Assembly (NCBI GenBank): GCA_050261575.1
Contig: JBLNDL010000014.1
Coordinates: 10,054 to 74,053, forward strand
From: Sphingomonadaceae bacterium
Lineage (GTDB): Bacteria; Chloroflexota; UBA6077
DNA length: 64,000 bases
Direction of reading: 5' to 3'
Shown here: piece by piece, positions 1,216-24,602 of the stretch
Numbering within the stretch: position 1 is the stretch's first letter
How the letters are laid out: every line of letters starts with the position of its first letter
The notes under the pieces: model-generated
Told to the model about the DNA's origin: nothing
What the model saw: the letters and a program-made list of their open reading frames with translations, nothing else
The model's database searches: none
Program-made: the position numbers and the translations under genes

Positions 1216-1314
1216 GTCTGTCTCGCAGGGGCGGTGGCAAGCCGGAGCGCGGCGTCCTCGGGGGCGCGGCGACCTGACGGATATCCGGCCTGCCACCGCG
1301 GTTATCCCGTGGTG

Positions 1315-1531
1315 CTATCTGGTCTCCACCGGCTTCAACTGCCTCTGAACCTCTCCCCAGAGGTCCCCCTCGGACGTGTAGACCCGGTTGGGTACCCGTT
1401 CCAGGATCTCCACGACGCTCTGTGGAGCGCCCTGCTGCTTGGCCCAGTCGACCAGCGCCGGCAGCGATTCTGGCCAACCCACCTTCCTCAAGTAGGTGCG
1501 CAACTCATCCCTGGTAAGGGTCTGGGCCACA
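1315..1531 (-). CDS. small hypothetical protein (~71 aa)
   Basis: ORF with strong RBS (GGGAGGTGA) 5 nt before a GTG start; divergent from the rrf2 promoter; no recognisable family and no GG terminus. Confidence 0.3.
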
Positions 1532-1681
1532 GCGATCACCTCCCTTCAAAGGCGGTGGCCCACCCCGGCGAGGAGTGGGCCACCAAGCACCATCGCTACT
1601 GCGTGGCCGCCTGGCGCCCCCGAGGCCGGCCGATCGCAACTGGTATATAGCACCTGTAGGTTACCGATTCGCGATCAGGAT

Positions 1682-1720
1682 GTCAATGGATGTTGACAAC
1701 GGCCGCGGGCGCGCTATAAT
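1682..1720 (+). promoter_or_regulatory. near-consensus sigma70 promoter (TTGACA-16nt-TATAAT) overlapped by inverted repeat GTCAA-N6-TTGAC, upstream of the rrf2 gene
   Basis: TTGACA at 1693-1698 and TATAAT at 1715-1720; IR GTCAATGGATGTTGAC at 1682-1697; a second TTGAC direct copy at ~1734. Confidence 0.45.
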
Positions 1721-1779
1721 AGTCGGCGTGTTGTTGACTTAGGCTGTCGGAATTATCGAATATACTGGGGAGGGTCAAC

Positions 1780-2217
1780 GTGCGGATCTCGATGAAGAGC
1801 GACTACGCGTTGCGCGCCTTGATGGAGCTTGCCACGGTGCACGGCAATCGCCCCCTCCAGACCGGCGAAATCGCGGCGCGACGCTCCGTCCCGGAGTCCT
1901 ACCTGGAGCAGTTGCTCACCGCCTTGCGGAAGGCGGGCCTCGTAACCAGCGTTCGGGGGCCTCAAGGCGGGCACTCTCTGGCCGCGCCCCCCTCTCGGAT
2001 CACCGTGGGCGACGTGGTCAGGGCCCTGGAGGGGCCGGTGATAGTCATGGACTGTCTGGATTCGCCCGATGCCTGCCAGTCTCCGGATAGCTGTGTGCTG
2101 AAGGAGTTGTGGCTCGACGTGCGGAGGGCGGTAGAGGGGGCGATGGACAGGGTCACCCTCGAGGACCTGGCATCTCGCCAAGCGCTGATCGAGGGCGGCC
2201 TCATGTACCACATATGA
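1780..2217 (+). CDS. Rrf2-family transcriptional regulator (CymR/IscR-like)
   Basis: MRISMKSDYALRALMELA... winged-helix Rrf2 N-terminus; 145 aa; GTG start 5 nt after GGGGAGGG. Confidence 0.8.
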   Translation: MRISMKSDYALRALMELATVHGNRPLQTGEIAARRSVPESYLEQLLTALRKAGLVTSVRGPQGGHSLAAPPSRITVGDVVRALEGPVIVMDCLDSPDACQSPDSCVLKELWLDVRRAVEGAMDRVTLEDLASRQALIEGGLMYHI

Positions 2218-2311
2218 TCGGCGCGGCCGCGCCTGTCCTTCCAAGGCGGAGGGGGCGTGGCCTCCTGACGCGCAGCCCGGGTACCACGGAACGTGCCGGC
2301 GGCAGGGGGCA

Positions 2312-2338
2312 CGTGAGGCGAGCGAGCGCAGCCTCGCG
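2312..2338. repeat. intergenic hairpin repeat, family H (loop CGAGCGAGCGCAG), copy 1
   Basis: CGTGAGG-CGAGCGAGCGCAG-CCTCGCG; flanked by more small hairpins (2287-2365). Confidence 0.55.
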
Positions 2339-2474
2339 GTTCGGCCTGCCCCGCGGCAGGAACGAGACGCTGAACGTAGTGGCTTGGGATCTGCAATCGT
2401 CCTGGTGGGAATGCCGATGCCTGGAGCCGCATCCCGATGCGGCTTCGAGGGAGCGGGCGAAGGGGGAGATCAGG

Positions 2475-2921
2475 TTGCGGAAAGAACAGAGCGTGGTACG
2501 CCTGCCAGGTAGCTACCTGCGAGAGATCGTCGAGCACGCTCGGGATGGAAGTCCCAACGAGGTGTGCGGACTGATCGCAGGCCGCGGCGGGTATCCCGTG
2601 AAGCTGTACCGGACTACCAACGACGATCCCAACCCGCGGGTTCGGTACAACGTCGAGCCCCGGGAGCTTCTGGAAATCCACAGGGAGATCGAAGAGAACG
2701 GCTGGAGCCTGATGGCCATCTACCATTCCCATCCCGCGAGCGAGGCCTATCCATCGGAGACCGACGTTAGGCTCTCCTACTATCCAGATGCCGTCTATCT
2801 GATCTGCTCGTTAGCGGACGAGGATCCGGTGGTGAGGGCTTTCCGGATAGTCGACAGACAGGTGACGGAGCTGGCGTTGGAGGTCGAAGTGGAAACAGAG
2901 GGGCAGCGGCACGCCTCGTAG
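2475..2921 (+). CDS. JAMM/MPN+ metalloprotease (Mec+-like deubiquitinase-type)
   Basis: EVCGLIAG...HSHPASEAYPSETD matches JAMM motif E..H-x-H-x7-S-x2-D; TTG/GTG start after AAGGGGGAG; upstream part of track ORF 2109.. is not coding. Confidence 0.75.
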   Translation: MRKEQSVVRLPGSYLREIVEHARDGSPNEVCGLIAGRGGYPVKLYRTTNDDPNPRVRYNVEPRELLEIHREIEENGWSLMAIYHSHPASEAYPSETDVRLSYYPDAVYLICSLADEDPVVRAFRIVDRQVTELALEVEVETEGQRHAS

Positions 2922-2954
2922 TGGGGAGAGAGAAAGAAGAAGGAGAAGGAATCT

Positions 2955-3908
2955 ATGCGGATCGCCAACGATATCACGGAGTTGATTGGGAAGACGCCGC
3001 TGGTCAGGCTGAACAGGGTGACGGAGGGGTGCCACGCCACGGTCGTGGCGAAGATGGAGAGTTTCAATCCCCTCTCCAGCGTGAAGGACAGGATCGGCCT
3101 CAGCATGATCGACGAGGCCGAGAAGGCCGGGCTGATCCGGCCGGGCAAGACGGTGATCGTGGAGCCGACCAGCGGCAACACCGGCATCGCCCTCGCCTTC
3201 GTGTCGGCTGCTCGCGGCTACCGGTTGATCCTGACCATGCCCGAGACAATGAGCGTGGAGCGGCGTCAACTGCTGAGGGCCCTCGGTGCCGAACTGGTGC
3301 TCACGCCGGGGTCAGAGGGGATGAAGGGGGCGGTCCGCCGGGCCGAGGAGATAGCCGCGGAGATTCCCGATGGGTGGATCCCCCAGCAGTTCAAGAACCC
3401 CGCCAATCCGAAGATCCACCGCGAGACCACGGCGCTGGAGATCTGGAACGACACCGAGGGGAAGGTGGACATCCTGGTGGGTGGCGTCGGCACCGGAGGG
3501 ACGATCACCGGCATCGCCCAGGTGATCAAGGCCCGAAAGCCCGGGTTCAAGGTGGTGGCGGTGGAGCCGAAGGCCTCGCCGGTGCTATCCGGTGGTGCGC
3601 CGGGTGCCCACAAGATCCAGGGTATCGGGGCGGGCTTCGTGCCGGATGTCCTGGACCGGGAGTTGGTGGACGAGATCATCCAGGTGGAGAACGAGGACGC
3701 TTTCGAGACGGGGAGAAGGCTGGCTCGCCGGGAGGGCCTGCTGGTCGGCATCTCCTCCGGAGCTGCTGCATGGGCGGCTCTCCAGGTGGCGAGGAGACCG
3801 GAGAACGAGGGCAAGCTGATCGTCGTGATCCTTCCGGACACGGGCGAGCGCTACCTGAGCACCCCTCTCTTCCAGGAGCCACAGGGTAACGGGACGGCCA
3901 GCCTGTAG
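2955..3908 (+). CDS. cysM: PLP-dependent cysteine synthase (CysM/CysK family)
   Basis: 317 aa; SVKDRIG lysine motif, GNTG, glycine-rich TGGT loop; RBS GAAGGAGAAGGA. Confidence 0.85.
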
Positions 3909-10656: not shown

Positions 10657-13098
10657 ATGAGCGCGTCGGCGTCCAGACTGCGGCGGTGGCTGCCGACTCG
10701 GCGGGGTCGGCCGACGGCAGTCCTTCCACTCGGGCTCCAGACCAGGATCGCCCTCCTCGTGGCCTCGGGGCTGCTGGCTCTCATGACTTCGTTCGTGGTG
10801 TTGGGCCTCGCCTCGTTGCGCGAGAGTACCGAGCAGGGCACTCAGCACAGGGTCGCCCTGGCACGGACGGCTGCAGTGCATCTGGACTTCATCCTGGAGC
10901 AGGCCGCCACGATGATCCGCTTGAGCGGCCAGGAACTGGCGGCGGCTCTCCAATCCCGCGACCAAGAGGCTGTTCGGGTGTCGCTGCGGGATGCAGCGCA
11001 CCGGATGGCCACTGTCGCGGATGGCATCCTCCTCTTCGACTCATCGGGACTTCTGCTGCAGTCTGAACCCTCCGATCTCAGCTTCTCCTACCCCTCGATC
11101 GGCCCCGGGGCGTTCGCTGCCCTGGCCTCTGGAGGGGCGATGGCGGTGGACTGGGTGCGCACGCCCCTCGGCGCCGTGGCTCTCGTCGTGGTGCCGTTGC
11201 CCGGAAGCGGCGAGGCCGACGGTGGCTACCTAGCTGCCGCCGTCGACTTCTCGGGCCAGGCTGTGGGCCACTGGCTTCGACAACTGGCACTGGGCAGAAG
11301 CGGGCGCGTGGACATCGTGGACGGTGATGGCGTGGTGCTCACGACGACCGACGAGCAGGATGCCCCGAGCGCCGAGAGCCACGCGGGCTACTTCGCAGGG
11401 TTGATGGCCGAGAGGCGAGCCACCGTGTCCACCTGCTACGACTGCCACACCACCTCCCAGGGGCAGGCGAGGAGCCGCGAGGTGATGGCCTATGCCCCGC
11501 TCCGAGTGGCCGACTGGGGAGTTGTGCTGCGGCAATCCGAAGACGAGGTGCTGGAGCCGACCCACCGGCTGCAGCGACAGGTGCTGGTGCTGGGGGGCGT
11601 CTCGCTGCTGGTTGCCCTCCTGATGGTGTGGCTGACCACCAGGAGCGTGGTGGGGCCCATCCGCGCCCTGACCCAGTCGGCGCGGAGGATCGCGGATGGG
11701 CATCTGGGTGAGGCGGTGGCCGTTCACGGCTCGGACGAGGTGGGTGAGCTGGCTCGCACGCTGGACCACATGAGGGCAAGGCTCCAGCGGTCGATCGAGG
11801 AGATCAAGGCGGGCGCCGCGGAGCTGGAAAGCCGGGTTCGGGAGCGCACGGCGGAACTGGAGCGCTCCGAGGGCGAGCTTCTCCGGCGCAACCGGGAGCT
11901 CTCCACTCTGAACTCCATAGCCGTGGCCCTCAACCAGTCGTTGGACCTGGAGTCCATCCTGAACGTCGCTCTCCTGAACGCGCTGCGGCTGACGGGGATG
12001 GATGCCGGGGCGATCTACCTGCTGGACGAGCACACCGGGGAGCTGGAGTTGGCCGCGCACCACGGCCTCTCGCGAGAGGCTGCCCAGGTGGCTGCGAACC
12101 TGGGATTGAGCGCCAGCCTCTGCGCGGCGGCGGCGCAGGCGGGAGAGCCCATCCTGGTGGAGGACACACACCGCTACGCAAGGGGGGCGAAGGGGGTGCT
12201 GCGCAGCGAAAAGATGAGGTGCATGGTGCGCGTGCCCTTCAAGTCCACCCGTGGCCTGCTGGGGACGATGTGCCTCGGGTCCGGCACCAGCAGGGGCTTC
12301 TCCAAGGCGGAGATGGACCTGCTGACCTCTGTCAGCAACCAGATCGCGGTCGCGGTGCAGAACGCCCGGCTGTACGAGGAGCTGCAGCGCAAGGAGAGGA
12401 TGAGGGGCGAACTGCTGCTGAAGGTGATCACGGCGCAGGAGGCAGAGCGAAAGCGGATCGCCCGGGAGCTGCACGATCAGACCAGCCAGGCCCTTGCCGC
12501 GCTGGCGGTGGCGGTGGAGACCGCCGCCGGTCAGGCGGCCGAGGGGGGAGACGTCGTCGAGAGCCTGGCGCGAATGAAATCGCTGGCAGTGGACACGTTG
12601 GAGGAGATCCACCGCCTGATCTTCGATCTCAGGCCGACGCTGCTGGACGATCTGGGGCTGATCGCCGCGCTCAGGTGGTACGCCGAGACGAGGCTGGGCG
12701 AGGTGGGGATCAAGGTGCGGCTGGAGGTGGTGGGTGAGGAGACGCGGTTGGCACCTCAGATCGAGACGGCGCTCTACCGGGTGGTGCAGGAGGCCGTCAC
12801 CAACGTGGCGAATCACTCAGGTGCACAGAGTTTCACGGTCACGCTGGTCCTCAAACCGGACCGCCTGCAGCTCAGCATGGTGGACGACGGGTGGGGCTTC
12901 GACATGGCCGAGCTAGCCCGCTCCCGTGATCAGAAGCGGGGGCTCGGGCTGATGGGGATGAAGGAGCGGGTGGAGCTGCTGGGCGGGAGCTTTTCGATCT
13001 ATTCGGAGTTGGGTGGAGGCACGAAGATCACGGTGGAGGTTCCGCTCACTGTGGGTGGGGGAGAGGGCGGCGAGGGAGAAGCGGGGCTCGCCGGTTGA
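10657..13098 (+). CDS. sensor histidine kinase: periplasmic domain with c-type heme motif (CYDCH), HAMP, GAF, HisKA_3, HATPase_c
   Basis: TM1 ~aa30-52, periplasmic CXXCH at aa260-264 (nt 11434-11448), TM2 ~aa308-327; HAMP; GAF; ARELHDQTSQAL H-box (NarX/NarL type); C-terminal ATPase. Confidence 0.8.
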   Translation: MSASASRLRRWLPTRRGRPTAVLPLGLQTRIALLVASGLLALMTSFVVLGLASLRESTEQGTQHRVALARTAAVHLDFILEQAATMIRLSGQELAAALQSRDQEAVRVSLRDAAHRMATVADGILLFDSSGLLLQSEPSDLSFSYPSIGPGAFAALASGGAMAVDWVRTPLGAVALVVVPLPGSGEADGGYLAAAVDFSGQAVGHWLRQLALGRSGRVDIVDGDGVVLTTTDEQDAPSAESHAGYFAGLMAERRATVSTCYDCHTTSQGQARSREVMAYAPLRVADWGVVLRQSEDEVLEPTHRLQRQVLVLGGVSLLVALLMVWLTTRSVVGPIRALTQSARRIADGHLGEAVAVHGSDEVGELARTLDHMRARLQRSIEEIKAGAAELESRVRERTAELERSEGELLRRNRELSTLNSIAVALNQSLDLESILNVALLNALRLTGMDAGAIYLLDEHTGELELAAHHGLSREAAQVAANLGLSASLCAAAAQAGEPILVEDTHRYARGAKGVLRSEKMRCMVRVPFKSTRGLLGTMCLGSGTSRGFSKAEMDLLTSVSNQIAVAVQNARLYEELQRKERMRGELLLKVITAQEAERKRIARELHDQTSQALAALAVAVETAAGQAAEGGDVVESLARMKSLAVDTLEEIHRLIFDLRPTLLDDLGLIAALRWYAETRLGEVGIKVRLEVVGEETRLAPQIETALYRVVQEAVTNVANHSGAQSFTVTLVLKPDRLQLSMVDDGWGFDMAELARSRDQKRGLGLMGMKERVELLGGSFSIYSELGGGTKITVEVPLTVGGGEGGEGEAGLAG

Positions 13099-13109
13099 GG
13101 GTGAAGGGG

Positions 13110-13760
13110 ATGGGGAAGATACGGGTACTGCTGGTTGACGACCACGCGATCCTGCGGGAGGGGATACGTGCCCTGCTCGCGCTGTCCAAGGATATCGACG
13201 TGGTGGGGGAGGCTGCCGACGGGCAGACGGGCATCGAGTGCGCGCGGGAGTTGGCGCCGGACGTGGTGCTGATGGATATCGCGATGCCTGTTCTGGACGG
13301 GCTGGAGGCCACGCGCCGGATCAAGGAGCGGCAGAAGGGGACGAAGGTGCTGATCCTGACCCAGCACGAGAATCGGGAGTACGTCTACCCCATCCTGAAG
13401 GCCGGCGCCGACGGGTACGTGCTGAAGAAGGCGGCGGGCACGGAGTTGATCTCGGCCATTCGTGCGGTGCACGAGGGCGGCACCTTCCTCTATCCCTCGG
13501 TGGCGAAGGCGGTGGTGGAGGACTACCTGCGTCCGGACGGGACGGTCGCCGAGCGTCGCCACGCCAGGCTCACAGACCGGGAGGTCGAGGTGCTGAAGCT
13601 GGTGGCGGAGGGGCGCAGCAACCAGGAGATCGCCGACCTGCTCTGCCTCAGCGTCAAGACCGTGACGGGACACCGGACCAACATCATGGAGAAGCTGGAT
13701 CTCCACAGCCGCACCGAACTGGTGAAGTACGCGATTCGGACCGGCCTGGTCCAGCCCTGA
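13110..13760 (+). CDS. NarL/LuxR-family response regulator
   Basis: VLLVDDH...D receiver domain; C-terminal LuxR HTH (EVLKLVAEGRSNQEIA); RBS GAAGGGGA. Confidence 0.85.
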   Translation: MGKIRVLLVDDHAILREGIRALLALSKDIDVVGEAADGQTGIECARELAPDVVLMDIAMPVLDGLEATRRIKERQKGTKVLILTQHENREYVYPILKAGADGYVLKKAAGTELISAIRAVHEGGTFLYPSVAKAVVEDYLRPDGTVAERRHARLTDREVEVLKLVAEGRSNQEIADLLCLSVKTVTGHRTNIMEKLDLHSRTELVKYAIRTGLVQP

Positions 13761-13768
13761 CGTTCGGC

Positions 13769-13803
13769 GAACAGGGCGTTTTTCCCCCTTGGAACAGGGC
13801 GTT
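13769..13803 (+). promoter_or_regulatory. tandem direct repeat GAACAGGGCGTT (x2, 23 bp centre to centre) in the dsrA upstream region
   Basis: GAACAGGGCGTT at 13769-13780 and 13792-13803, just downstream of the RR gene and ~170 nt upstream of the dsrA ATG. Confidence 0.4.
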
Positions 13804-13974
13804 CTGCGGATATGCCCCCCACCTCTGCTCCCCTAGACTGCGGACGGTAGCTTCCGCTCCGGCACCGTTTTCCATCCGAGGTCTCGCGCGCTGTCTCCCC
13901 GCCGGCTCTGGGGTGCCGATTCGTCCGCCATCAAACCGGGACAGGGGAGCGCGGAATGCTGTGGGAGGTAGTTG

Positions 13975-15159
13975 ATGGCAGACGATTCCAAGACACCCTT
14001 GGTGGACGAACTGGAAAAGGGAAGCTGGCCCAGTTTCGCCAAAGAAATGAAGCGGCGGGCCGAGAAGAACCTGGCCGCGAAGGACTTGGTAGGCCAGCTT
14101 GAACTCTCCTACCAGGAGAAACGGGTCCACTGGAAGCACGGCGGGGTCGTGGGCGTCAGGGGCTACGGGGGTGGGGTGATCGGTCGCTACTCCGACGTTC
14201 CCGAGAAGTTCCCCAACGCCGCCGAGTTCCACACGATGCGGGTGAACCAGCCCAGTGGCTGGTTCTACACCACCGAAAGCCTCCGCAAGCTGTGCGACGT
14301 TTGGGAGAAGTACGGGACGGGCCTCACCAACATGCACGGCTCCACAGGCGACATCATCCTCCTGGGCACGCAGACGGCCAACTTGCAGGAAGCCTTCAAC
14401 GCCCTGAGCGACGCCGGGTTCGACCTGGGTGGCTCCGGCTCCGACCTACGAACCCCGAGCGCCTGCGTGGGCCCCGCTCGATGCGAGTACGCCTGCATCG
14501 ACAGCCTGGGGATCTGCCACGACATCACTACGACCTACCAGAACGAGATTCACCGGCCGATGTGGCCCTACAAGTTCAAGATCAAGGTGGCGGGTTGCGC
14601 CAACGACTGCGTCGCATCCGTCGCCAGGTCCGATTTCGCCATCATCGGCACCTGGAAGGGCCCTTTGCGGATAGACCAGGCCGCGGTGAAGGAGTACATC
14701 GCCGCGGGCTTCGACGTGAAGGGCGAGGTGGTCGATATGTGCCCCACGAGGGCGCTGTGGCTGAACCAGGATGACAGCCTGGCTCTTGTCGCCGAGGAGT
14801 GCAAGCGCTGCATGCACTGTCTCAACAAGATGCCGAAGGCGATCAAGCCCGGCAGCGAGAAGGGCGCGACGATTATGGTCGGCGGGAAGGCCCCCATCGT
14901 CCGCGGCGCCTACCTCTCGTGGGTGGTCGTGCCATTCATGAAAATGGAGCCTCCCTACACGGAGTTGAAGGAGCTGCTGGAGAAGATCTGGGAGTGGTGG
15001 GACGAGCACGGGAAGTCCAGGGAGCGGATCGGGGAGTTGATCGACCGACTCGGGATGGGCCGCTTCCTCCGCGATCTGGGACTGGAGCCCTCGCCTGCGA
15101 TGGTGTTCCAGCCGAGGTCCAACCCCTACTACTTCTGGCAGCCCGAGGAGGTGAAGTGA
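13975..15159 (+). CDS. dsrA: dissimilatory sulfite reductase alpha subunit
   Basis: ~395 aa; siroheme/FeS Cys clusters ([16 protein letters not shown]), ferredoxin-like insert (CKRCMHCLN); RBS GGAGG. Confidence 0.85.
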
Positions 15160-15160: not shown

Positions 15161-16225
15161 ATGGCAGAGGCTAGAACCGATTTCGGGCCTCCGTACTTCA
15201 AGGACATGTTGCCTCCGGTGATGGCGGAGAACTACGGCAAGTGGGTCTACCACGAGACGCTGCGCCCCGGGGTGTTGATGCACGTGGCCGAGAGCGGGGC
15301 GGCGGTCTACACGGTGAGGGTCGGCTCGCCCCGCCTGATGAGCATAGACACCATCCGAGAGCTGTGCGACGTGGCCGATCGGTACTGCGACGGCCACCTG
15401 CGCTTCACGAGCCGGCACAACGTCGAGTTTCTGCTGACCGACCCGGGCAAGATCGAGCCGCTGATGGCCGAAATGAAGAGCCGCGGCTGGCCGGTGGGCG
15501 GGACGGGAAACTCGATCAGCAACATCGTGCACACCCAGGGGTGGATCCACTGCCACAGTGCGGCCACCGACGCCTCCGCGCTGGTGAAGTCCATCATGGA
15601 CGAGGTCCAACCCTACTTCGAGAGCATGACGCTGCCCGCGAAGGTGCGGATCGCAGTGGCCTGCTGCCTCAATATGTGTGGCGCGGTGCACTGCTCCGAC
15701 ATCGCCCTTGTGGGGATCCATCGGAAGCCGCCAAAGGTGGACGCCGAGCGGCTGGCGAAGACCTGCGAGGTGCCGAACATCATCGCGGCCTGCCCGACTG
15801 CGGCGATCCGGCCGAACCCGAAGGAGAAGGGAGTCATCATCAACGAAGAGCGATGCATGTACTGCGGCAACTGCTTCACCGTGTGCCCGGCCATGCCCAT
15901 CGCCGACCCGGAGAACGACGGGGTGGCGGTCTTCGTGGGCGGCAAGGTGTCGAACGCGAGGAGCGCTCCGATGTTCTCCCGGCTGGCGATTCCATATCTG
16001 CCCAACAACCCGCCTCGCTGGCCCGAGACGGTGGCCGCGGTGAAGACCATCGTCGAGGTGTACGCGAAGCACGCCCGCAAGGGCGAGCGGGTCGGGGAGT
16101 GGATCGAGCGGGTCGGCTGGGAGCGGTTCTTCCAGTTGACGGGCATCCCGTTCACCGACAAGCACATCGACGACTTCCGCTTCGCTCCCACCACCTTCAG
16201 GACCTCGGCTGCGTTCAAGTGGTAA
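15161..16225 (+). CDS. dsrB: dissimilatory sulfite reductase beta subunit
   Basis: 354 aa; [20 protein letters not shown] siroheme-[4Fe-4S] motif, ferredoxin insert [12 protein letters not shown]; 1-nt gap after dsrA. Confidence 0.85.
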
Positions 16226-16283: not shown

Positions 16284-16475
16284 ATGAGTGAGGATCTGAA
16301 GGATCGGGTGATGGCCTATCTGGCCACGGTGGAGAAGGCGAAGAACAGGGACATCGCGAACGCCCTGGGGGCGCCGAAGCCCGAGGTGGACAAGGCGGTT
16401 GGCGACCTGGCCAAGGAGGACAAGATCGAGTACATCTACATCGGCACCTCCTACGTGAAGATCAAGGGGAAGTAG
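16284..16475 (+). CDS. dsrD: DsrD-like small winged-helix protein
   Basis: 63 aa MSEDLKDRVMAYLA...IEYIYIGTSYVKIKGK; position right after dsrB and size/pattern match DsrD; RBS GGAG. Confidence 0.55.
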   Translation: MSEDLKDRVMAYLATVEKAKNRDIANALGAPKPEVDKAVGDLAKEDKIEYIYIGTSYVKIKGK

Positions 16476-16487
16476 GGGCCCTCACCC

Positions 16488-16533
16488 CGCAACGCGAGCG
16501 AGTGCAGCGTTGCGCCTCTTGCAGAAGGAGAGG
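16488..16533. repeat. compound hairpin repeat: family H copy 4 plus CCTCTT..AGAGG hairpin
   Basis: CGCAACG-CGAGCGAGTGCAG-CGTTGCG, then CCTCTTGCAGAAGGAGAGG; preceded by GCCCTCACCCC. Confidence 0.55.
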
Positions 16534-16559
16534 GGGAACTGGGGACAGCCTCTCCCGTC

Positions 16560-17099
16560 GTGAGAGGGGGCTGGCAGGTAGCGGTGCTGACGGAGTTGAT
16601 CGAGGCGAACCGAGCCACGCTGCTGAAGCGATGGTTCGAATCGATATTGGAGGGTTACCCCTCGGACGTGGCCGGCCTTCTACGTCGGGAGGCTGACCCG
16701 TTCCTGAACCCCGTCGGAAGCACGATCTCCCGGGAGATCGGGACCGTGCTGGACGAGCTTCGCCGTGGCGGGGGCGGCGCCGGGCTCTCGGCCGCGCTGG
16801 ACGCCATCGTTCAGATCCGGGCGGTGCAGGAGATGGAGCCATCCCGGGCAGTCGGGTTCGTCTTCCTGCTCAAGAGGGTGGTGAGGGAGACGGTCGACGT
16901 CGAGGGCGCGGACCCGCGGCTGCAGGCTGAACTGCAGGAGTTCGAGTCCAGGGTGGATGGTGCGGCTCTTCTCGCCTTCGACCTGTACCTGAAGCATCGG
17001 GAGAGGATCCACGAGATCCGCACGAAGGAGGTTCGGGAGAGGTCCGAACGTCTGATGGAGCGGATGAGCCGGATCTACGGGATACGGGAGCCGGTGTAG
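16560..17099 (+). CDS. dsrT: DsrT-like protein (RsbRD_N-type domain)
   Basis: 179 aa between dsrD and dsrM; LKRWFESIL..ADPFLNPVG pattern resembles the RsbRD N-domain/DsrT; start uncertain (GTG 16560 or 16584). Confidence 0.45.
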   Translation: MRGGWQVAVLTELIEANRATLLKRWFESILEGYPSDVAGLLRREADPFLNPVGSTISREIGTVLDELRRGGGGAGLSAALDAIVQIRAVQEMEPSRAVGFVFLLKRVVRETVDVEGADPRLQAELQEFESRVDGAALLAFDLYLKHRERIHEIRTKEVRERSERLMERMSRIYGIREPV

Positions 17100-17312
17100 G
17101 GGCAGGCGGGCGTGTCTGCCCGGCCGAGGTGGAAGCGCGGCGCCGTGTGTGAGGGACGAGGGCGCACCCGTGTGTGCGCCCCTGCCAGGGTGACGCCGCG
17201 TCGGTAGGGGCTGACGCGCATCGGTCTGGGCGGGCCCGAAGAGCAGTCGACGGCGAGAACGCCGAGTCGGCGGGCATGGTGGCAGGGCTGCCGGCCCCCA
17301 CGTTACCCACTC

Positions 17313-17358
17313 CACAACGCGAGCGAGCGCAGCGTTGCGCCTCTCCCAGGGGGAGAGG
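17313..17358. repeat. compound hairpin repeat: family H copy 5 plus CCTCTCCC..GGGAGAGG hairpin
   Basis: CACAACG-CGAGCGAGCGCAG-CGTTGCG, then CCTCTCCCAGGGGGAGAGG; ~70 nt upstream of dsrM. Confidence 0.55.
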
Positions 17359-17425
17359 CAGAGTAGCGGAGAGATCCAGCGAGCGAGGCATTCGTTCCGA
17401 TGGCCGTGAAGCGAGGCAGTGCTAG

Positions 17426-18430
17426 ATGAGAATCCTCTGTCCCATGCTGGCGGTCCTGGCCATCGCCCTGATCGGGCTGGCGGGCGGGAGCGTGAGCGGC
17501 CTGCGAGCCGTCTTCGGCATCGCCATTCCGTATCTGGCCCTCGGTCTCTTCGTCGTGGGGTTGGTGTGGAGGGTGGTGGACTGGGCCAGATCGCCCGTCC
17601 CCTACCGCATACCCACCACCTGCGGGCAGCAGAGATCGCTGCCCTGGCTGAGAGCCAGTAACCTGGAGAGCCCGCACGACACCCTGGGCGTCGTGGGCCG
17701 TATGGCCCTGGAGGTGCTGGCGTTCCGGTCCCTGTTCCGGAATAGCTCCGTGGAGATAAGGGGCAAGCGGCTGCTATACCGCGACCGGAAGCTGCTGTGG
17801 GTGGCCGCGATCTTCTTCCACTGGTCCATGCTGGTGGTGATCCTCCGGCACTCGCGCTTCTTCCTGGAGCCGGTGCCTGTCTTCGTCTCCCTGCTCCAAT
17901 CGTTGGACGGGTTCTTCCAGATAGGCGAGCCGGTGCTGTTCGTCACGACGGTGGGCTTCCTGGCCGGGCTGAGCTACCTGCTGGTCCGCCGGGTGGTGCT
18001 GCCGCAGGTCCGCTACATCTCGCTGCCATCGGACTACTTCCCCCTCTTCCTCCTCATTGGCATCGGGCTCACCGGTGTCCTGATGCGCCACTTCTTCCGC
18101 ACCGACGTGGCGGCGGTGAAGGATCTGACCCTGGGGTTGGTGAGCCTTCAGCCCGTGGTTCCGGACGGGGTGTCGCCCCTCTTCTTCGCCCACCTGCTTC
18201 TGGTCAGCAGCCTCTTCGCCTACTTCCCCGCGAGCAAGCTGATGCACGCGGGTGGCATCTTCCTGAGCCCGACCAGAAACCTGGCGAACGACAGCCGAGC
18301 GCGCAGGCACGTGAACCCGTGGAACCATCCGGTGCCGGTCCACAGCTACTGGGAGTGGCAACAGGAGTTCAAGGACAAGCTGGAGGCGGCGGGGCTGCCG
18401 TTGGATCCCGAGCCGAGTCGAGAAGGTTGA
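17426..18430 (+). CDS. dsrM: DsrM, membrane di-heme b subunit (NarI/HdrE-like)
   Basis: 334 aa, ~6 TM helices, conserved His in TM helices; first gene of the dsrMKJOP block. Confidence 0.8.
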   Translation: MRILCPMLAVLAIALIGLAGGSVSGLRAVFGIAIPYLALGLFVVGLVWRVVDWARSPVPYRIPTTCGQQRSLPWLRASNLESPHDTLGVVGRMALEVLAFRSLFRNSSVEIRGKRLLYRDRKLLWVAAIFFHWSMLVVILRHSRFFLEPVPVFVSLLQSLDGFFQIGEPVLFVTTVGFLAGLSYLLVRRVVLPQVRYISLPSDYFPLFLLIGIGLTGVLMRHFFRTDVAAVKDLTLGLVSLQPVVPDGVSPLFFAHLLLVSSLFAYFPASKLMHAGGIFLSPTRNLANDSRARRHVNPWNHPVPVHSYWEWQQEFKDKLEAAGLPLDPEPSREG

Positions 18431-18431
18431 G

Positions 18432-20069
18432 ATGCCGGAGAAGAAACCGACACCAGAGCAGTTGATGCAGGTGGATCACACGCCGCCCTCGCGGGACTGG
18501 ATGGACGCCCACGTCGACTTCCAGGCCAGGAGGGGCAGCTACTGCTACAGCGCGAAGCCGGAGATGCTCGAATATCTCGGCATGCCCAACCCTCGGAAGT
18601 GGCAGCCCTACGATGAGGACTGGAAGCTTCCCCCGGACTGGAGGGAGACGATCCTGGAGGGGATGAAGGAGAGGCTGGCGAAGTACCGCTCCTTCAAGCT
18701 CTTCATGGACATCTGCGTGCGATGCGGCGCTTGTGCAGACAAGTGTCACTACTTCGTCGGCTCCGGGGACCCGAAGAACATGCCCGTCCTGAGGGCTGAG
18801 CTGATGAGGTCGGTGTACAGGAGGTACTTCACCACCTCCGGGAGGCTGTTGGGACGTTTCGGGGGGGCGCGCGAGCTGACGGAGGAGGTGCTGAAGGAGT
18901 GGTTCTACTACTTCTACCAGTGCACCGAGTGCCGCCGCTGCTCCGTCTTCTGTCCCTACGGCATCGACACCGCCGAGATCACGATGATGGGGCGGGAGCT
19001 GCTCAATCTGGTGGGGGTGAACATCAACTGGATCCTGGAGCCTGCCGCCAACTGCTACCGCACCGGCAACCACCTGGGGGTCCAGCCGCACACCTTCAAG
19101 GACAACCTGGAGTTTGCCGCATCGGATCTAGAAGACATCACGGGGGTTAAGGTCGAGGCGCCGATCAACAGGAAGGGCGCCGAGGTGCTGGTGATCGTGC
19201 CCTCGGCAGACTACTTCGGGAATCCCCACTACTATACCTTCCTGGGCTACCTGGCGATCTTCCAGGAGATAGGGCTGGACTACACCTTCAGCGCGTTCGC
19301 GTCGGAGGGAGGCAACTTCGGCCTGTTCTCCTCGCACGAGATGGCGAAGCGGCTGAACGCTAAGATCTACGCGGAGGCCGAGAGGCTGAAAGTGAAGTGG
19401 ATCCTGGGGGGCGAGTGCGGCCACATGTGGAGGGTGCTGCACCAGTACATGGACACGCACAACGGCCCCGCCGACTTCTTGGAGGTGCCGGTCTCGCCGA
19501 TCACGGGAACAAGGTTCGAGCATGCCAGGTCGACGAAGATGGTGCACATCGCCGAGTTCACGGCGGACCTGCTGCGGCACGGGAAGCTGAAGCTCGACCC
19601 GAGCCGGAACGACCGCTGGCGGGTGACCTACCACGACTCCTGCAACCTCGCGCGGAGCATGGGGCTGTTCGAGGAGCCGCGCTACATCCTGAGGAGTTGC
19701 TGCAACCACTTCTACGAGATGCCGGAGAACACCATCCGGGAGAAGACCTTCTGCTGCGGGAGTGGCTCAGGATTGGGGACCGAGGAGAACCTGGAGATGA
19801 GGCTGCGGGGCGGGCTGCCCAGGGCCAACGCGGTGAAGCACGTGCACGATAAGTACGTCGTGAACCTGCTCGCCTGCATGTGTGCTATCGACAAAGCCAC
19901 TCTTCCGACGCTGATGGAGTATTGGGTGCCGGGGGTGGAGGTCGCCGGCGTGCACGAGCTGTTGGGCAACGCCCTCGTGATGACAGGCGAGAAGAAGCGG
20001 ACCACGGACCTGCGCTTCGAGCCTCTGCCGGGCGTGGAGGAGGCGGAGGGGGTGGAAGCCAATGTATGA
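18432..20069 (+). CDS. dsrK: DsrK, cytoplasmic FeS/CCG-domain subunit (HdrD-like)
   Basis: 545 aa; CVRCGACADKCH and CTECRRCSVFCP ferredoxin motifs; CCG-domain cysteines (CCGSGSG). Confidence 0.85.
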   Translation: MPEKKPTPEQLMQVDHTPPSRDWMDAHVDFQARRGSYCYSAKPEMLEYLGMPNPRKWQPYDEDWKLPPDWRETILEGMKERLAKYRSFKLFMDICVRCGACADKCHYFVGSGDPKNMPVLRAELMRSVYRRYFTTSGRLLGRFGGARELTEEVLKEWFYYFYQCTECRRCSVFCPYGIDTAEITMMGRELLNLVGVNINWILEPAANCYRTGNHLGVQPHTFKDNLEFAASDLEDITGVKVEAPINRKGAEVLVIVPSADYFGNPHYYTFLGYLAIFQEIGLDYTFSAFASEGGNFGLFSSHEMAKRLNAKIYAEAERLKVKWILGGECGHMWRVLHQYMDTHNGPADFLEVPVSPITGTRFEHARSTKMVHIAEFTADLLRHGKLKLDPSRNDRWRVTYHDSCNLARSMGLFEEPRYILRSCCNHFYEMPENTIREKTFCCGSGSGLGTEENLEMRLRGGLPRANAVKHVHDKYVVNLLACMCAIDKATLPTLMEYWVPGVEVAGVHELLGNALVMTGEKKRTTDLRFEPLPGVEEAEGVEANV

Positions 20070-20445
20070 CGGTGGGAAGATCGTCCCAGGGCTGATCCTC
20101 TTCCTGGGGTTGCTGTTGACGCCCTTCTGGTACAACGCCGGGGCGGGGCGGGCGGCTGCAAAGCCGGAGATCGTAAAGCCGGTCGACGAGAAGGCGTGCG
20201 TGGAGCCGGCGGAGTTCATGCGGGCCAACCACATGCGGCTGCTGATCGACTGGCGCGAGGACGCCGTGCGCGGCGGCGACCTGCTGTACGTGGCCGGCGA
20301 CGGGAGGAAGCACGACAAGAGCCTCAGCAACAACTGCATGAAGTGCCACTCCAACAAGGAGGAGTTCTGCGACCGGTGTCACGACTACGCCCAGGTTAAG
20401 CCTAACTGCTGGGATTGCCACACGGTCCCCAAGGAGGGGAAGTGA
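20062..20445 (+). CDS. dsrJ: DsrJ, periplasmic triheme cytochrome c
   Basis: 127 aa, N-terminal signal/TM, three CXXCH (CMKCH, CDRCH, CWDCH). Confidence 0.8.
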   Translation: MYDGGKIVPGLILFLGLLLTPFWYNAGAGRAAAKPEIVKPVDEKACVEPAEFMRANHMRLLIDWREDAVRGGDLLYVAGDGRKHDKSLSNNCMKCHSNKEEFCDRCHDYAQVKPNCWDCHTVPKEGK

Positions 20446-21245
20446 TGCGAGCGGACAGAAGGCAGTTCCTGAAGATTGCCGGGGTCGCTGTCCTGGGGCT
20501 GGGCCTCAAGGGTGGTGCGGATCTGCTGAATGGCGGCCGGCTCGTGGAGGCCTCGGTCGTCGGAGGCGTGCCGGGCCGGAGCCCCCGCGCGGGCAAGCGG
20601 TGGGCGATGGTGGTGGATCTGCCGAAGTGCTGGGAGGGCAAGGGGTGCACCGACTGCATCGACGCCTGCCACAGAGAGCACAACGTTCCCCACTTCGAGG
20701 AGCCGAAGAACGAGGTGAAGTGGGCATGGCAGGACCGTTACGAGGTCGCCTTCTCCGGCCAGGACCCGCGGCTGCTATCCCCCGGCCTCCGGGATAGGTC
20801 CGCTCTCCTGATGTGCAACCACTGCGACAACCCCCCGTGCGTCCGGGTGTGTCCGACCAGGGCAACCTGGCAGCGGGAGGACGGGATAGTGGCGACGGAC
20901 ATGCACCGTTGCATCGGCTGCCGCTACTGCATGGTGGCCTGCCCCTATGGGGCGAGGAGCTTCAACTGGATCGACCCTCGACGGGGTCTGGACATGGAGA
21001 AGGTGAACGCCGATTTCCCCACCAGGACGCGGGGGGTGGTGGAGAAGTGCACCTTCTGTGCGGAGAGGATCGACAGGGGCGGCGCCCCCGCCTGCGTCGA
21101 GGCGTGCCGGCAGAAGGCGCTGACGTTCGGCGACCTGAACGACCCAGCCTCTGAGGTGAGGAGGATCGTCGAGTCGCGGTACACCCTGGTGCGGCGGCCG
21201 GAGTTGGGGACCAGGCCGCAGGTGTACTACGTGGCCTCGCAGTGA
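20445..21245 (+). CDS. dsrO: DsrO, periplasmic Tat-exported 4x[4Fe-4S] ferredoxin-like subunit
   Basis: RRQFLK twin-arginine signal; CNHCDNPPCVRVCP, CIGCRYCMVACP, CTFCAERI FeS motifs; ATG overlaps dsrJ stop. Confidence 0.8.
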   Translation: MRADRRQFLKIAGVAVLGLGLKGGADLLNGGRLVEASVVGGVPGRSPRAGKRWAMVVDLPKCWEGKGCTDCIDACHREHNVPHFEEPKNEVKWAWQDRYEVAFSGQDPRLLSPGLRDRSALLMCNHCDNPPCVRVCPTRATWQREDGIVATDMHRCIGCRYCMVACPYGARSFNWIDPRRGLDMEKVNADFPTRTRGVVEKCTFCAERIDRGGAPACVEACRQKALTFGDLNDPASEVRRIVESRYTLVRRPELGTRPQVYYVASQ

Positions 21246-21252
21246 GGTAGAG

Positions 21253-22425
21253 ATGGTGGAGAAAGCGCTGAGGGGAAGCCGCGCGTATTGGGGCTGGCTG
21301 CTGTTCCTGCTCGCTGTGTCCGTGACAGGGCTCGGCTTCTACCTGTGGCAGGCCGCGACCGGCACCGAGGCATCGGGGCTGAGCAGGGACGTGCCGTGGG
21401 GCTTCTTCATCGCGAACTACACGTTCATGGTCGGGGTGGCAGCTTCGGCCGTCGTGGTGGTGATACCGTACTACCTCCACAGCCAGAGGGAGTTCGGCCG
21501 GATGATCGCGCTGGGGGAGTTCCTGGCCGTAGCAGCGGTGCTGACGACCCTGCTGTTCATCATGGCGGACCTGGGCCAACCCGGCAGGATGTTCAACATC
21601 CTCCTCTACCCGACGCCCAATTCCCCCTTCTTCTGGAATACCATCGTCCTGCCGGGCTACCTGCTGCTGAATCTGGTGATAGCCTGGTTCACCCTGGATG
21701 CCGAGCGGCACGACGTGCCGGTGCCCGGCTGGGTGAAGCTGCTGATCCTGGTGTCGATCCCCTGGGCGATCAGCATCCACACCCTTACGTCGTTCGTCTA
21801 CAGCGGGTTGGTGGCGAGGCCGTTCTGGAACAGCGCCATATTGACCCCCCGCTTCCTCGCCTCGGCCTTCGCCTCGGGTCCTGCGCTGCTGGTGATCCTG
21901 GCGCTGGTGGTGAGGCGTTACACCGGCTACGATCCGGGCAGCAGGGCCATAGAGAAGGTGGCGCTGATCGTCACCTACGCTGCCACCGCCAACCTGTTCC
22001 TGGTGCTGGTGGAGATCTTCGCAGTGGTGTACAGCAACGTCGCGGGGCACATGGAGCACTTCGAATACATGTTCTTCGGCCTCGAAGGGCGCGGCCAGTT
22101 GGTGCCATGGATGTGGCTCTCGGTGATCGTGGCGGTGGTGTCGGTCGCGCTGCTTATCGTCCCGCGGACTCGCAGGAACGAGAAGACGTTGCTGGCGGCC
22201 TGCGCGGGGGTGTTCTTCTCCACGTGGATCGACAAGGGACTCTGCCTCGTGGTGGGGGGATTCGTTCCCTCGACGCTCGGCAGGATCACGGAGTACCTGC
22301 CAACGGTGCAGGAGTGGGTGATCGCTGGCGCGATATACGCAGCCGCGGGGATGTTGTTGACGTTGCTGTACAAGGTGGCCATCGGCGTGAGACTGGAAGA
22401 GGAGGAGGTGCAGGAATGCCGATAA
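21253..22425 (+). CDS. dsrP: DsrP, NrfD/PsrC-type integral membrane subunit
   Basis: 390 aa, ~10 TM helices, NrfD-like topology. Confidence 0.8.
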   Translation: MVEKALRGSRAYWGWLLFLLAVSVTGLGFYLWQAATGTEASGLSRDVPWGFFIANYTFMVGVAASAVVVVIPYYLHSQREFGRMIALGEFLAVAAVLTTLLFIMADLGQPGRMFNILLYPTPNSPFFWNTIVLPGYLLLNLVIAWFTLDAERHDVPVPGWVKLLILVSIPWAISIHTLTSFVYSGLVARPFWNSAILTPRFLASAFASGPALLVILALVVRRYTGYDPGSRAIEKVALIVTYAATANLFLVLVEIFAVVYSNVAGHMEHFEYMFFGLEGRGQLVPWMWLSVIVAVVSVALLIVPRTRRNEKTLLAACAGVFFSTWIDKGLCLVVGGFVPSTLGRITEYLPTVQEWVIAGAIYAAAGMLLTLLYKVAIGVRLEEEEVQECR

Positions 22426-23006: not shown

Positions 23007-24602
23007 CTACCACTCGAGATAGGGAGGGAGGTCGGACATCGCGTTCACGATCAACTCGGCCAGGCCGCCGTAGTGGAGGTTGTGTTTCTCCCCGATGCCG
23101 TAGAACTCCAGCAGCCCCCGCATCTGCCCCTTGCAGTTGGAGCAGGGGGCGCAGACGTACTTGGGGATGGATGGATCCATCTCCCCCTCGAAGGCTTCGA
23201 GTATCTGCTTCAGCTTCGTCCGGCCCGAGATCGCGTTCCGCCACTCGGGGAAGTTGAGCGCCTGCATGATTGCGAAGCCGCTGCCACCCCCGCAGCAGTA
23301 GTTCTCCACGCCGTGCGGGGCCATCTCCCGGAAGCGTGGGGCGATCCGCCGCAAGATCCTGCGCTGGGGCTCCACGATCCCCATCAGCCGCACGACGTTG
23401 CAGGGATCGTGGAGGGTCACCGGGAAGTCGTTTCGGCCGGGGTCCAACTCCAGCCTGCCGGAGGCGACGAGGCCGTCTAGCAGGGTGAGGCAGCTCTCCC
23501 TGGGCACGTTGTACTCGGCTGCGAATATGCGGTCGGCGATGACCGAGAGCGCCTTGTGGGCGTGGCCGCACTCGCCGATCACGATCTTCTTCACCTTCAG
23601 CTTCTTCGCCACCTGGGCGTGCCTGAGGGCGATGCGGGCGAACTGGACGTCGTCGTACCAGAGGCCGTAGTTGACGGCGTCGTATCCGAGCAGGTCGCTG
23701 GAGAGGGTGTAGCTTAGCCCTGCCCGTTCGAAGACGATGGCGAACGCCTCCGGGTTCTCCGGCCAGGCCACGAACTCGCCCGCATTGTGGAGCAGCAGGA
23801 TATCCGCCCCCTCCTTGTCCACCGGCCACTCGAAGCTGAGGCCGGTGCGGTCCGTGACGTCCTCCTGGAGGAACTCGATGTTGTTGGCCAGCGCGGCCGG
23901 TGTCATCCCCGTGCTGGAGCCGACCCGAAGCTGCTGGATCGTTCCCTGCTGGTGGATTTCCTTTGGGGCGATCCCCATCTCCATGCTGAACAGCTTCCTG
24001 ATCTCGTGGGCCACGAGCCCGTTGTCCACGCCGATGGGGCACGCCTGGGCACAGCGGCGGCAGAGGTTGCAGCGGTAGGCCAGCTCCGCCAGGCGGGCCA
24101 CGGTTCGCCAGTTCAGCTCGACTTCCGCGCCGGACAGCTTCGCCCTGAGCCTCCCCGCGGGGGAAAGGTACTTCCTGACGATACGGCGGAGGACCTCCGT
24201 GCGGAAGCTCGGGCGGTAGGCTGGGAGGCGGCCGCTGGCCTGGTAGACGTGGCAGGCGTCGGCGCAACTCTGGCAGCGGGCGCAGTTGTCCAGGGAGAGC
24301 ACGAGCGGCTGCCAGAAGGCCCAGTTGCTGTCGCGAGAGAGCAGCTTCCGAAGCCCTCGGAGGAAGCTCTCCACCAGCGTCCTCTCCGCCTCGGGCGAGC
24401 CCGGTTTGGGGATGGCGATGGCGGAGTAGCCATCCAGGGAGGCCTCAAGGGTCTTGCGGCGATCGGACCTGACCCCCTGCAGGGGGGGGAGTGGGGCCTC
24501 GCAGGGGAAGGGGAGCGGCATCAACCCCTCCGAGCGCGGCTGAAACAACGGGTCGGTCTCCCGACCGAAGTCCCGCTCGTTCAACTCGGGATAGCCCTCC
24601 AT
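23007..24602 (-). CDS. DsrK/HdrD-like FeS (CCG-domain) oxidoreductase, paralog 2
   Basis: CARCQSCADACH, CNLCRRCAQACP, CCGGGSGF; similar architecture to dsrK; ATG overlaps upstream stop (TGATG); RBS GGAGG. Confidence 0.75.
   Translation of the reverse strand: MEGYPELNERDFGRETDPLFQPRSEGLMPLPFPCEAPLPPLQGVRSDRRKTLEASLDGYSAIAIPKPGSPEAERTLVESFLRGLRKLLSRDSNWAFWQPLVLSLDNCARCQSCADACHVYQASGRLPAYRPSFRTEVLRRIVRKYLSPAGRLRAKLSGAEVELNWRTVARLAELAYRCNLCRRCAQACPIGVDNGLVAHEIRKLFSMEMGIAPKEIHQQGTIQQLRVGSSTGMTPAALANNIEFLQEDVTDRTGLSFEWPVDKEGADILLLHNAGEFVAWPENPEAFAIVFERAGLSYTLSSDLLGYDAVNYGLWYDDVQFARIALRHAQVAKKLKVKKIVIGECGHAHKALSVIADRIFAAEYNVPRESCLTLLDGLVASGRLELDPGRNDFPVTLHDPCNVVRLMGIVEPQRRILRRIAPRFREMAPHGVENYCCGGGSGFAIMQALNFPEWRNAISGRTKLKQILEAFEGEMDPSIPKYVCAPCSNCKGQMRGLLEFYGIGEKHNLHYGGLAELIVNAMSDLPPYLEW

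Follow-up and report, generated by a model that had tools for sequence, protein, structure and literature searches.

The subject of this report is a gene module in a 64-kb stretch of DNA (hereafter the window) from an uncultured Chloroflexota bacterium, in which a sensor histidine kinase gene (positions 10657-13098, + strand) and a NarL/LuxR-type response regulator gene (13110-13760, + strand) lie directly upstream of dsrAB, with a conserved pair of putative operator sites (13769-13812) in between. Regulation of dsrAB, the genes of the marker enzyme of microbial sulfate/sulfite respiration, is poorly known; the module consists of a defined kinase, regulator and operator that are testable in vitro with synthetic DNA and protein, and it may reveal the environmental cue that turns on sulfite respiration, a pathway of broad biogeochemical importance. 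A first-pass annotation, made from the sequence alone, had proposed that a periplasmic heme-c sensor kinase and its regulator control dsr expression. Its statements on the sequence were all confirmed, with one correction on the placing of the repeats. Judged by the sequence comparisons described below, the finding is real and the main interpretation is largely borne out, the module combining two known kinds of system, the heme-c Cache sensor and the NarL-type two-component system of respiratory control.

The kinase gene encodes 813 amino acids (aa) and has orthologues of 58-100% identity. Two transmembrane (TM) helices, at aa ~30-52 (10744-10812; peak value 2.49 in a 19-residue Kyte-Doolittle window) and aa ~308-328 (11578-11640; peak value 2.53), are predicted to enclose an outward-facing domain of ~255 aa (aa 53-307, 10813-11577). 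The outward orientation was assigned because the N-terminus is rich in arginine (six arginines within residues 1-20, read from the sequence; positive-inside rule) and a HAMP domain follows TM helix 2 directly; the reading frame and hydropathy thus agree with the ~250-aa periplasmic domain given by the first-pass annotation, and the segment that carries the CXXCH motif is predicted to lie outside and not in the cytoplasm. The cytoplasmic part is composed of HAMP (PF00672, 11635-11787, 57.5 bits), a GAF domain (GAF_2, 11941-12360, 67.4 bits), which is a possible second, cytoplasmic input, and a HisKA_3 plus HATPase_c core (12445-13050; 51.3 and 61.4 bits), all above the Pfam cut-offs. The H-box reads ARELHDQTSQ. 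Matches of the kinase core in the PDB were DesK, VraS and YocF, and the GAF and ATPase domains of DevS were also among the PDB matches of the kinase. The cut-offs of the NCBIfam equivalogs NarQ (98 vs 553 bits) and NarX (83 vs 578 bits) were not reached.

The regulator consists of a receiver domain (Pfam Response_reg, 103 bits) and a GerE helix-turn-helix (HTH) domain (73.8 bits), as expected for the LuxR/NarL-type partner that had been annotated. Its start is more likely the ATG at 13110 than the TTG at 13095, the ATG agreeing with the orthologues, which are 85-90% identical. The acidic pocket and phospho-acceptor were read from the sequence as Asp10, Asp11 and Asp56. The regulator stands outside every named orthologue group, because no NCBIfam equivalog cut-off was reached (best score MctR, 201 vs 300 bits; NarL, 162 vs 250 bits). 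The next genes passed the NCBIfam equivalog cut-offs for dsrA (13975-15159, + strand; TIGR02064, 569 vs 392.85 bits) and dsrB (15161-16225, + strand; TIGR02066, 518 vs 341.5 bits), and are followed on the same strand (16284-22425; Pfam) by a gene for a dsrD-like protein of 63 aa, an RsbRD_N (dsrT-like) gene, dsrM, dsrK, dsrJ, dsrO and dsrP.

Relatives were gathered by scanning genomes, by scanning metagenomes for the regulator and by looking up the gene context of kinase orthologues, and 98 loci (handles beginning with L) were fetched. The genome scan yielded the order kinase, regulator, dsrAB in three Chloroflexota metagenome-assembled genomes. In the comparison of genomes that the first-pass annotation had suggested, the pair is located upstream of dsrAB in 12 loci (the window, L001, L002, L003, L010, L016, L019, L091, L092, L093, L095 and L096), over which kinase identity ranges from 100% to ~44% and DsrA identity extends down to ~60%. 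The pair and the operator were also present in L097 and L009, the contigs of which end before dsrA could appear. At L094:387-9801 the kinase (58% identical, with the motif CYNCH) and the regulator are kept, and the dsr island and the operator are both absent; the pair runs straight into pantothenate/folate genes that in the window lie past the dsr cluster. The flanks of L094 correspond to the borders of the dsr island of the window (PALP enzyme, pantothenate kinase, DFP, pantoate ligase, GTP cyclohydrolase I and HPPK), so that, from the gene order at L094, the dsr island looks as if it had been gained or lost as a block.

Two gene neighbourhoods within these loci are mentioned separately. In L096, which represents the 44%-identical lineage, siroheme-synthesis genes (CysG-like, TP_methylase) are located directly upstream of the kinase gene (L096:5459-7001), so that sensor, regulator, cofactor supply, transporter and dsrAB are grouped at one locus. 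In the two distant dsr-linked loci, L016 (5937-6824) and L019 (6670-7620), the regulator gene is followed by one for a Ser/Thr protein kinase, which echoes the CHH-STPK association described for sCache_heme proteins (10.64898/2026.05.25.727664).

Putative operator and promoter upstream of dsrA

Two exact copies of GAACAGGGCGTT occur in the window, starting at 13769 and 13792 and thus spaced 23 bp apart, as had been noted before. The first copy (13769-13780) lies in the distal operator site (13769-13791, + strand), which in relatives takes the form of the palindrome yAGGG-CGTTTT-CCCTA; the second (13792-13803) opens the proximal site (13792-13812, + strand), where it is followed by the conserved sequence CTGCGGAT, and this site overlaps the would-be -35 position. 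A -10-like hexamer, TAGACT, is found at 13834-13839 (+ strand), with an inferred transcription start near 13846. The repeats had been assigned to the dsrA leader; they are situated upstream of the -10-like hexamer and therefore belong to promoter/operator DNA and not to a transcribed leader. A role of the repeats as terminator or structured leader was rejected (direct repeats, no terminator-like site on the + strand, and no Rfam match in the leaders of the window and L003). Tandem Repeats Finder reported no array in the window, which has two copies with a non-repeated spacer.

Alignment of four loci revealed a sharp island of conservation amid diverged intergenic DNA, comprising the two repeats, a GCGGAT.CCCC block and a CTAGACT box. 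Across loci the operator consists of two tandem sites 23-24 bp apart. In the seven loci counted, the -10-like hexamer (TAGACT, TACACT, TAGCAT or TATAAT) comes 41-43 nucleotides (nt) after the first base of the proximal site; ten operators aligned later had the same layout with a similar hexamer at about that distance, as had L095, L096 and L097 (TAGAAT, TATAGT and TAGACT, respectively). In L016 and L019 the island is more diverged, but the AATAGGG/ACCCTA cores are still present with a period of 23 bp and with the same spacing to a TATAAT box. The distal site has perfect 5+5 palindrome arms in five instances, and the proximal site, AAyAGGGyGTT..CGGAT, is a weaker palindrome. Palindromic sites of 16 bp with half-sites ~11 bp apart fit the geometry expected for dimers of a GerE-type HTH. 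The earlier proposal that the repeats are a binding site of the regulator is strengthened in so far as they are part of an operator that is conserved, keeps a constant spacing to the -10-like hexamer and travels with the dsr and transporter genes; binding by the regulator itself is a prediction from these features.

No sigma-70 -35/-10 consensus pair was found at the window promoter, and no -35 consensus was found in any locus; the promoter was therefore read as activator-dependent. The centres of the two sites would fall near -43 and -66, as estimated with a start assumed ~7 nt past the -10-like hexamer, and by analogy this layout resembles that of promoters of the class II plus class I activator type.

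A generalised two-site pattern gave one match in the 64-kb window and none in 100 shuffles. Apart from the window, 11 of the 98 fetched loci contain the pattern, in every case on the strand of the dsr genes. In nine of these 11 dsrA is seen downstream; the other two are the truncated loci L009 and L097, which carry close orthologues. Since the pattern was refined once the sites were known, its sensitivity is circular, but the lack of a match in the remaining 87 fetched loci is informative. Operators occur in just two settings, in front of dsrA or in front of a YeiH-family transporter gene with dsrA farther downstream. No further copy was found in the window, including the regions upstream of the kinase gene and of dsrM. 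One or two such transporter genes (PF03601, 'putative sulfate exporter') follow the regulator gene at L001:9580-10902, L010:3893-5224, L016:7402-8472, L019:8151-9707, L091:10595-11917, L092:5023-6456 and L092:7504-8826 (two genes), L093:8628-9950, L096:12389-13828 and L097:9827-10873, and in every contig that extends as far as dsrA they are placed after the operator and ahead of dsrA. No PF03601 gene was found in the 64-kb window. The link to the operator provides a functional hint for this poorly characterised transporter family.

L092 has an operator before dsrA and another before each of its two transporter genes, three in all. In L010 the operator is located 1.4 kb past the regulator gene, in front of the transporter gene and dsrA. 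Together with L094, these layouts tie the operator to the regulated genes and not to the 3' end of the regulator gene. The L010 operator contains 4.5 perfect copies of the 24-bp unit GGGTGTTCTACCTACGTCGGAATA (L010:3475-3581; Tandem Repeats Finder); the perfect identity of the copies suggests a recent expansion, and the expanded array might change the dose-response of the promoter. Between regulator and operator, L010 also carries a gene (L010:2373-3134) for a predicted Tat-exported, cytochrome-like protein; this protein has two CXXCH motifs in addition to a C_GCAxxG_C_C domain and partly matches split-Soret cytochrome c. In L002 (3395-3435) and L003 (10215-10255) a second block of strong conservation, CAGTGGAAAyGryAGGGGCyAACGTAGTAGACTAGwTGGCGG, occurs in the 520-620-nt stretch between operator and dsrA. 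It contains another TAGACT, is absent from the window and may represent a second promoter or an RNA element; Rfam yielded nothing in the L003 stretch, the one scanned.

Sensor domain and its CXXCH motif

Relatives of the sensor region (kinase aa 25-332) were collected by an exhaustive HMMER search against 1.84 billion cluster representatives, which yielded 586 relatives, 322 of them scoring below 1e-10. The periplasmic domain by itself gave no relatives in a word-indexed protein search, which reflects a limit of that tool. A contig look-up by the exact sequence of the kinase gave no match. The window kinase itself matches dCache_1 (PF02743) below threshold (aa 105-290, 27-30 bits vs a cut-off of 45). 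The same family was matched in Pfam by 72 of 73 sensor-domain homologues (best E-value 4.7e-24), among which HisKA_3 was present in 43 and GAF in 37. An AlphaFold model built on the homologue alignment (mean predicted confidence, pLDDT, 90.8) has a long stalk helix and two alpha/beta modules; according to this model, a double PDC/Cache fold sits between the two TM helices. For comparison within the genome, a chemoreceptor encoded 33 kb away (46841-49309, - strand) has a canonical dCache_1 domain (83 bits) without CXXCH.

The only CXXCH motif of the kinase is CYDCH at aa 260-264 (11434-11448, + strand), at the position given in the first-pass annotation, and lies in the membrane-proximal Cache module as a putative site of covalent heme-c attachment. 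CXXCH occurs at about the same residue number in 120 of the 150 best cluster representatives. In a MAFFT alignment of 151 sequences, Cys, Cys and His occupy the aligned columns in 122 and each Cys alone is present in 126-127, C260, C263 and H264 being retained or lost jointly. Across the family the motif mostly reads CHxCH; the window protein and the sequences closest to it have C(Y/F/S)xCH. All full-length orthologues of at least 58% identity carry CXXCH. Arg292 co-varies with the motif (89% with vs 17% without), as do His261 and Asp241. His242 was considered as a motif-specific sixth heme ligand and rejected, since it is equally conserved in motif-less members. The motif is not an insertion, because motif-less homologues are of equal length in this region. 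On the evidence of these alignments, CXXCH is a family-level feature of the outward-facing domain and not a chance occurrence.

The genes of a System I cytochrome c maturation pathway, also recorded in the first-pass annotation, are located in the same window on the - strand (49934-57525; ccmC, ccmB, ccmA, ccmH, ccmF and ccmE with other open reading frames between them; Pfam). Among the plausible genes of the window only the kinase gene and dsrJ (three motifs) encode CXXCH. Covalent attachment of a c-type heme at CYDCH by these Ccm proteins is considered likely on sequence grounds, as Cys, Cys and His are co-conserved, the domain is outward-facing, ccm genes are nearby and an Arg co-varies with the motif; Arg292 could pair with a heme propionate. 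In the heme-PAS sensors EcDOS and FixL the heme pocket lies between the central helix and the third strand, and by analogy a Cache pocket at the position of the motif would suit a heme. The proposal of a heme-c sensor thus gains from the conservation of the motif throughout the family and the nearby Ccm genes; attachment remains a prediction for a motif modelled in a beta-strand.

The sensor domain is not universal among the dsr-linked kinases. Orthologues of 520-600 aa in L002 (703-2415), L003 (7794-9353) and L095 (7001-8803) have no Cache domain, their TM helices being joined by a short loop, and that of L003 is also without HAMP; all three retain the TM hairpin, the GAF domain, the kinase core, the operator and dsrAB. 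Because it is absent from these three dsr-linked loci, the heme/Cache domain was interpreted as an accessory input that is not required for dsr control as such. Control of dsr by a heme sensor, as originally put forward, is accordingly backed by the synteny of pair and operator and restricted by the sister loci without the sensor domain. The Cache domain and PF03601 occur together in eight of nine loci (the exception being the window) and are both absent from the three short-kinase loci (one-sided Fisher ~0.02, for few loci that are not phylogenetically independent). This distribution suggests, as a hypothesis, that the outward-facing domain reports something that the transporter handles, and the GAF-HisKA_3 core may be a second, conserved input.

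A distant dCache-CXXCH kinase gene, frameshift-split in the assembly, and a NarL-type regulator gene adjoin a cluster of 4Fe-4S, NrfD, multiheme cytochrome c and cytochrome b genes at L090:1930-9374, which hints that kinases of this family are generally attached to anaerobic respiratory modules.

Proposed mechanism and alternatives

A dedicated two-component system that controls the dsr operon is the best explanation of the locus as a whole and is regarded as moderately probable for this Chloroflexota bacterium on the strength of the sequence comparisons. Those comparisons establish the gene and domain anatomy, the argument on topology, the class of fold, the conservation of the motif, the synteny, and the conservation and specificity of the operator. 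The mechanism that we infer, extending from heme attachment through phosphotransfer and regulator-operator binding to activation (rather than repression) by a signal, would begin with a change at the heme (redox state or bound ligand) or in the distal Cache pocket as the input. The signal would be relayed from TM helix 2 through HAMP, a coiled coil and GAF to the HisKA_3 core, which would phosphorylate the NarL-type regulator on Asp56. The phosphorylated regulator would bind as two dimers at the tandem sites (13769-13812), the proximal one (near -43) over the missing -35 box and the distal one near -66, and would recruit RNA polymerase to the TAGACT promoter, so that dsrABD-dsrT-dsrMKJOP are turned on. 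In most relatives the same operator would also drive the one or two YeiH-family (PF03601) genes between operator and dsrA. With somewhat less than even confidence, a fuller version may be proposed in which the sensor is a second, independently evolved heme-c Cache that holds the heme in the membrane-proximal pocket and leaves the distal pocket free for a small ligand; such a two-input sensor (e.g., external sulfite or a related sulfur oxyanion plus redox or a gas) would make this the first dedicated pathway known to switch on dissimilatory sulfite reduction together with a co-regulated YeiH-family transporter of sulfur anions.

Several observations weigh against this interpretation or speak for rival explanations. 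With respect to the cofactor, the CXXCH motif falls within the predicted third strand (beta3) of the membrane-proximal module in the AlphaFold model and is not part of an inserted helix, unlike canonical heme-c sites, which lie in a helical turn. Neither a Met nor a motif-specific His is clearly conserved as a sixth ligand in the 151-sequence alignment, four of ~30 motif-less homologues retain CXXC without the His, and potential metal ligands are abundant in the family consensus (SDH...CHxCH). A two-component system might therefore control dsr with CXXCH serving, in the pocket of the proximal Cache module, as a metal site (Zn, Fe or Cu) or as a CXXC disulfide with redox activity, side-chain ligands being offered by residues 241-242 (Asp-His, in the near-invariant SDH) and 260-264 (Cys-His-x-Cys-His). 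This is considered unlikely, however, in view of the His after the second Cys, which is nearly always kept with both Cys (122 of 151 vs 126-127 for each Cys) and constitutes the Ccm recognition signature. In addition, the His at the first X position is Tyr, Phe or Ser in the dsr-linked clade, which leaves one metal ligand fewer, the domain faces outward with ccm genes present, and the candidate heme-propionate Arg co-varies with the motif. With respect to the input, the Cache domain is missing from the kinases of L002, L003 and L095 despite the presence of operator and dsrAB. The conserved input could thus be cytoplasmic or intramembrane (the GAF domain, the TM pair, the redox or energy state of the cell), with the heme-Cache as a lineage-specific addition that perhaps senses an external substrate imported by the YeiH-family transporter. 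The tie of the hairpin-type GAF-HisKA_3 kinases to operator and dsrAB in these loci, the co-occurrence of Cache and transporter described above, and the existence of known cytoplasmic sensors of the GAF-HisKA_3 type such as DevS, whose GAF domain was among the matches, speak for such an arrangement, which is a real possibility although on the unlikely side. It would supplement rather than replace the mechanism proposed above, the co-variation comes from few, phylogenetically non-independent loci, and the window kinase has an intact Cache domain whose motif all full-length orthologues retain, which indicates that the domain is under selection here.

The direction of control and the identity of the operator-binding protein have also to be weighed. 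The positions near -43 and -66 depend on an inferred transcription start, and the proximal site overlaps the -35 position, where a regulator acting as repressor could block RNA polymerase until the signal arrives; the 4.5 tandem sites of L010 would form a possible strong roadblock. Repression is nevertheless held to be quite unlikely, as the -35 consensus is missing in every locus, which is typical of promoters that require an activator, and a site centred ~41-43 bp upstream of the start occupies the class II activator position established for NarL, FNR and CRP promoters. Finally, the pair persists in L094, and a relative of the pair occurs in L098, without adjacent dsr genes, so that the operator might be bound by another protein, the kinase-regulator pair being a conserved neighbour with its target elsewhere; the dsrD of the same operon encodes a small winged-helix protein that could be a candidate. 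This explanation appears improbable, since pair and operator are found together in every dsr-linked locus examined over ~44-100% kinase identity, the 16-bp palindromic sites match the geometry of GerE-type dimers, and the operator is missing where dsr is missing.

Related systems and neighbouring genes

The sCache_heme domain (DUF3365/Tll0287, PF11845; e.g., GSU0582, GSU0935, Tll0287 and the P. azotoformans CHH receptor) was defined in 2026 in preprints by Deshpande et al. (PMC12889525, 10.64898/2026.05.25.727664) and described as the first Cache domain with a covalent cofactor; it is reported as rare or absent in Chloroflexota, its CXXCH motif lies in a helix inserted between beta3 and beta4, and its signalling members bind nitric oxide (PMC12889525). 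Like the window kinase, sCache_heme proteins combine an extracytoplasmic domain of the Cache superfamily and a conserved CXXCH with HAMP and histidine kinases (among other outputs in sCache_heme). The window sensor, in contrast, is a double Cache of ~255 aa instead of a single one, and its motif is in a predicted beta3 strand without an insertion. Membership in sCache_heme was rejected, as PF11845 was found neither in the Pfam matches of the kinase (E<=0.01) nor in those of 73 homologues, for which 25 families were listed; a PDB profile search with the sensor family (E<=1) did not return 5B82, 3B47 or 3B42. Because of the missing PF11845 match, the double module and the lack of an inserted helix, the window sensor is set apart and is best seen as a separate variant of heme-Cache that is apparently undescribed. 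Provided that the heme is real, the newly proposed idea of a Cache with a covalent cofactor would reach beyond single to double Cache domains, apparently along an independent route, and would involve at least ~120 clusters at 50% identity.

DcrA of Desulfovibrio vulgaris (Fu et al. 1994, as cited in PMC2886117 and PMC8396549) is a methyl-accepting chemotaxis protein whose periplasmic heme c reports redox state or oxygen. It resembles the window kinase as a periplasmic c-type heme sensor, in its case an experimentally proven one, of a sulfate reducer and differs in its output, which is chemotaxis and not transcription. A CHHCH motif in DcrA would fit the CHxCH consensus and may serve as a lead. 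Ten heme-c sensor domains have been reported in Geobacter (PMC3460858).

NarX/NarQ-NarL/NarP and TtrS-TtrR are respiratory two-component systems that sense the electron acceptor outside the membrane. With them the module shares the combination of a HisKA_3 kinase and a NarL/GerE regulator and, in the proposed mechanism, the activation of a respiratory reductase operon. The inverted '7-2-7' half-sites of NarL have a geometry similar to that of the present operator, whose sequence (yAGGG-N6-CCCTA) is unrelated to the TACYYMT of the NarL type. The NarX sensor is a four-helix P-box, whereas that of the window kinase is a dCache with CXXCH, accompanied by an extra GAF domain. By analogy, the module would work like NarX-NarL or TtrS-TtrR in function while standing outside those orthologue groups (NarX, NarQ, NarL and TtrR scores far below the cut-offs). 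The mycobacterial DevS/DosS-DevR system likewise joins a GAF-containing HisKA_3 kinase to a NarL-type regulator; DevS is a heme-based gas/redox sensor controlling anaerobic adaptation. DevS, however, is soluble and carries a non-covalent heme b in its cytoplasmic GAF domain, in contrast to the putative covalent, extracytoplasmic heme in the Cache domain of the window kinase.

A LuxR-type gene directly upstream of dsrAB was noted in another Chloroflexi lineage, in the Dehalococcoidia single-cell genome DEH-C11, where the two were adjacent stably enough for it to serve as an anchor for the polymerase chain reaction and as a phylogenetic marker (Wasmund et al. 2016, PMC4959651). That account gives no kinase, sensor domain, operator or regulatory role, and the likeness to the window regulator consists in the adjacency. 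Full-text literature searches yielded no paper on a dCache with CXXCH, and literature searches yielded no sensor-regulator pair assigned to dsrAB. The first-pass annotation had regarded such a regulatory module as new for dsr operons; as far as these searches reach, this holds for the assignment of a two-component system to dsrAB, and it has to be narrowed in that heme-c Cache sensors (PMC12889525; DcrA) and a LuxR-type gene next to dsrAB (PMC4959651) were already on record.

Just past dsrP, the genes of a second DsrMK-like pair lie in convergent orientation (23007-25507, - strand), one coding for a nitrate-reductase-gamma-like membrane protein and the other for an HdrD-like CCG protein. Upstream of the kinase gene (187-3908) there are sulfur-related genes, which encode a ThiF-family enzyme, a regulator of the Rrf2 type and a cysteine-synthase-like PALP enzyme, and the Rrf2-PALP neighbourhood was found again in L095.

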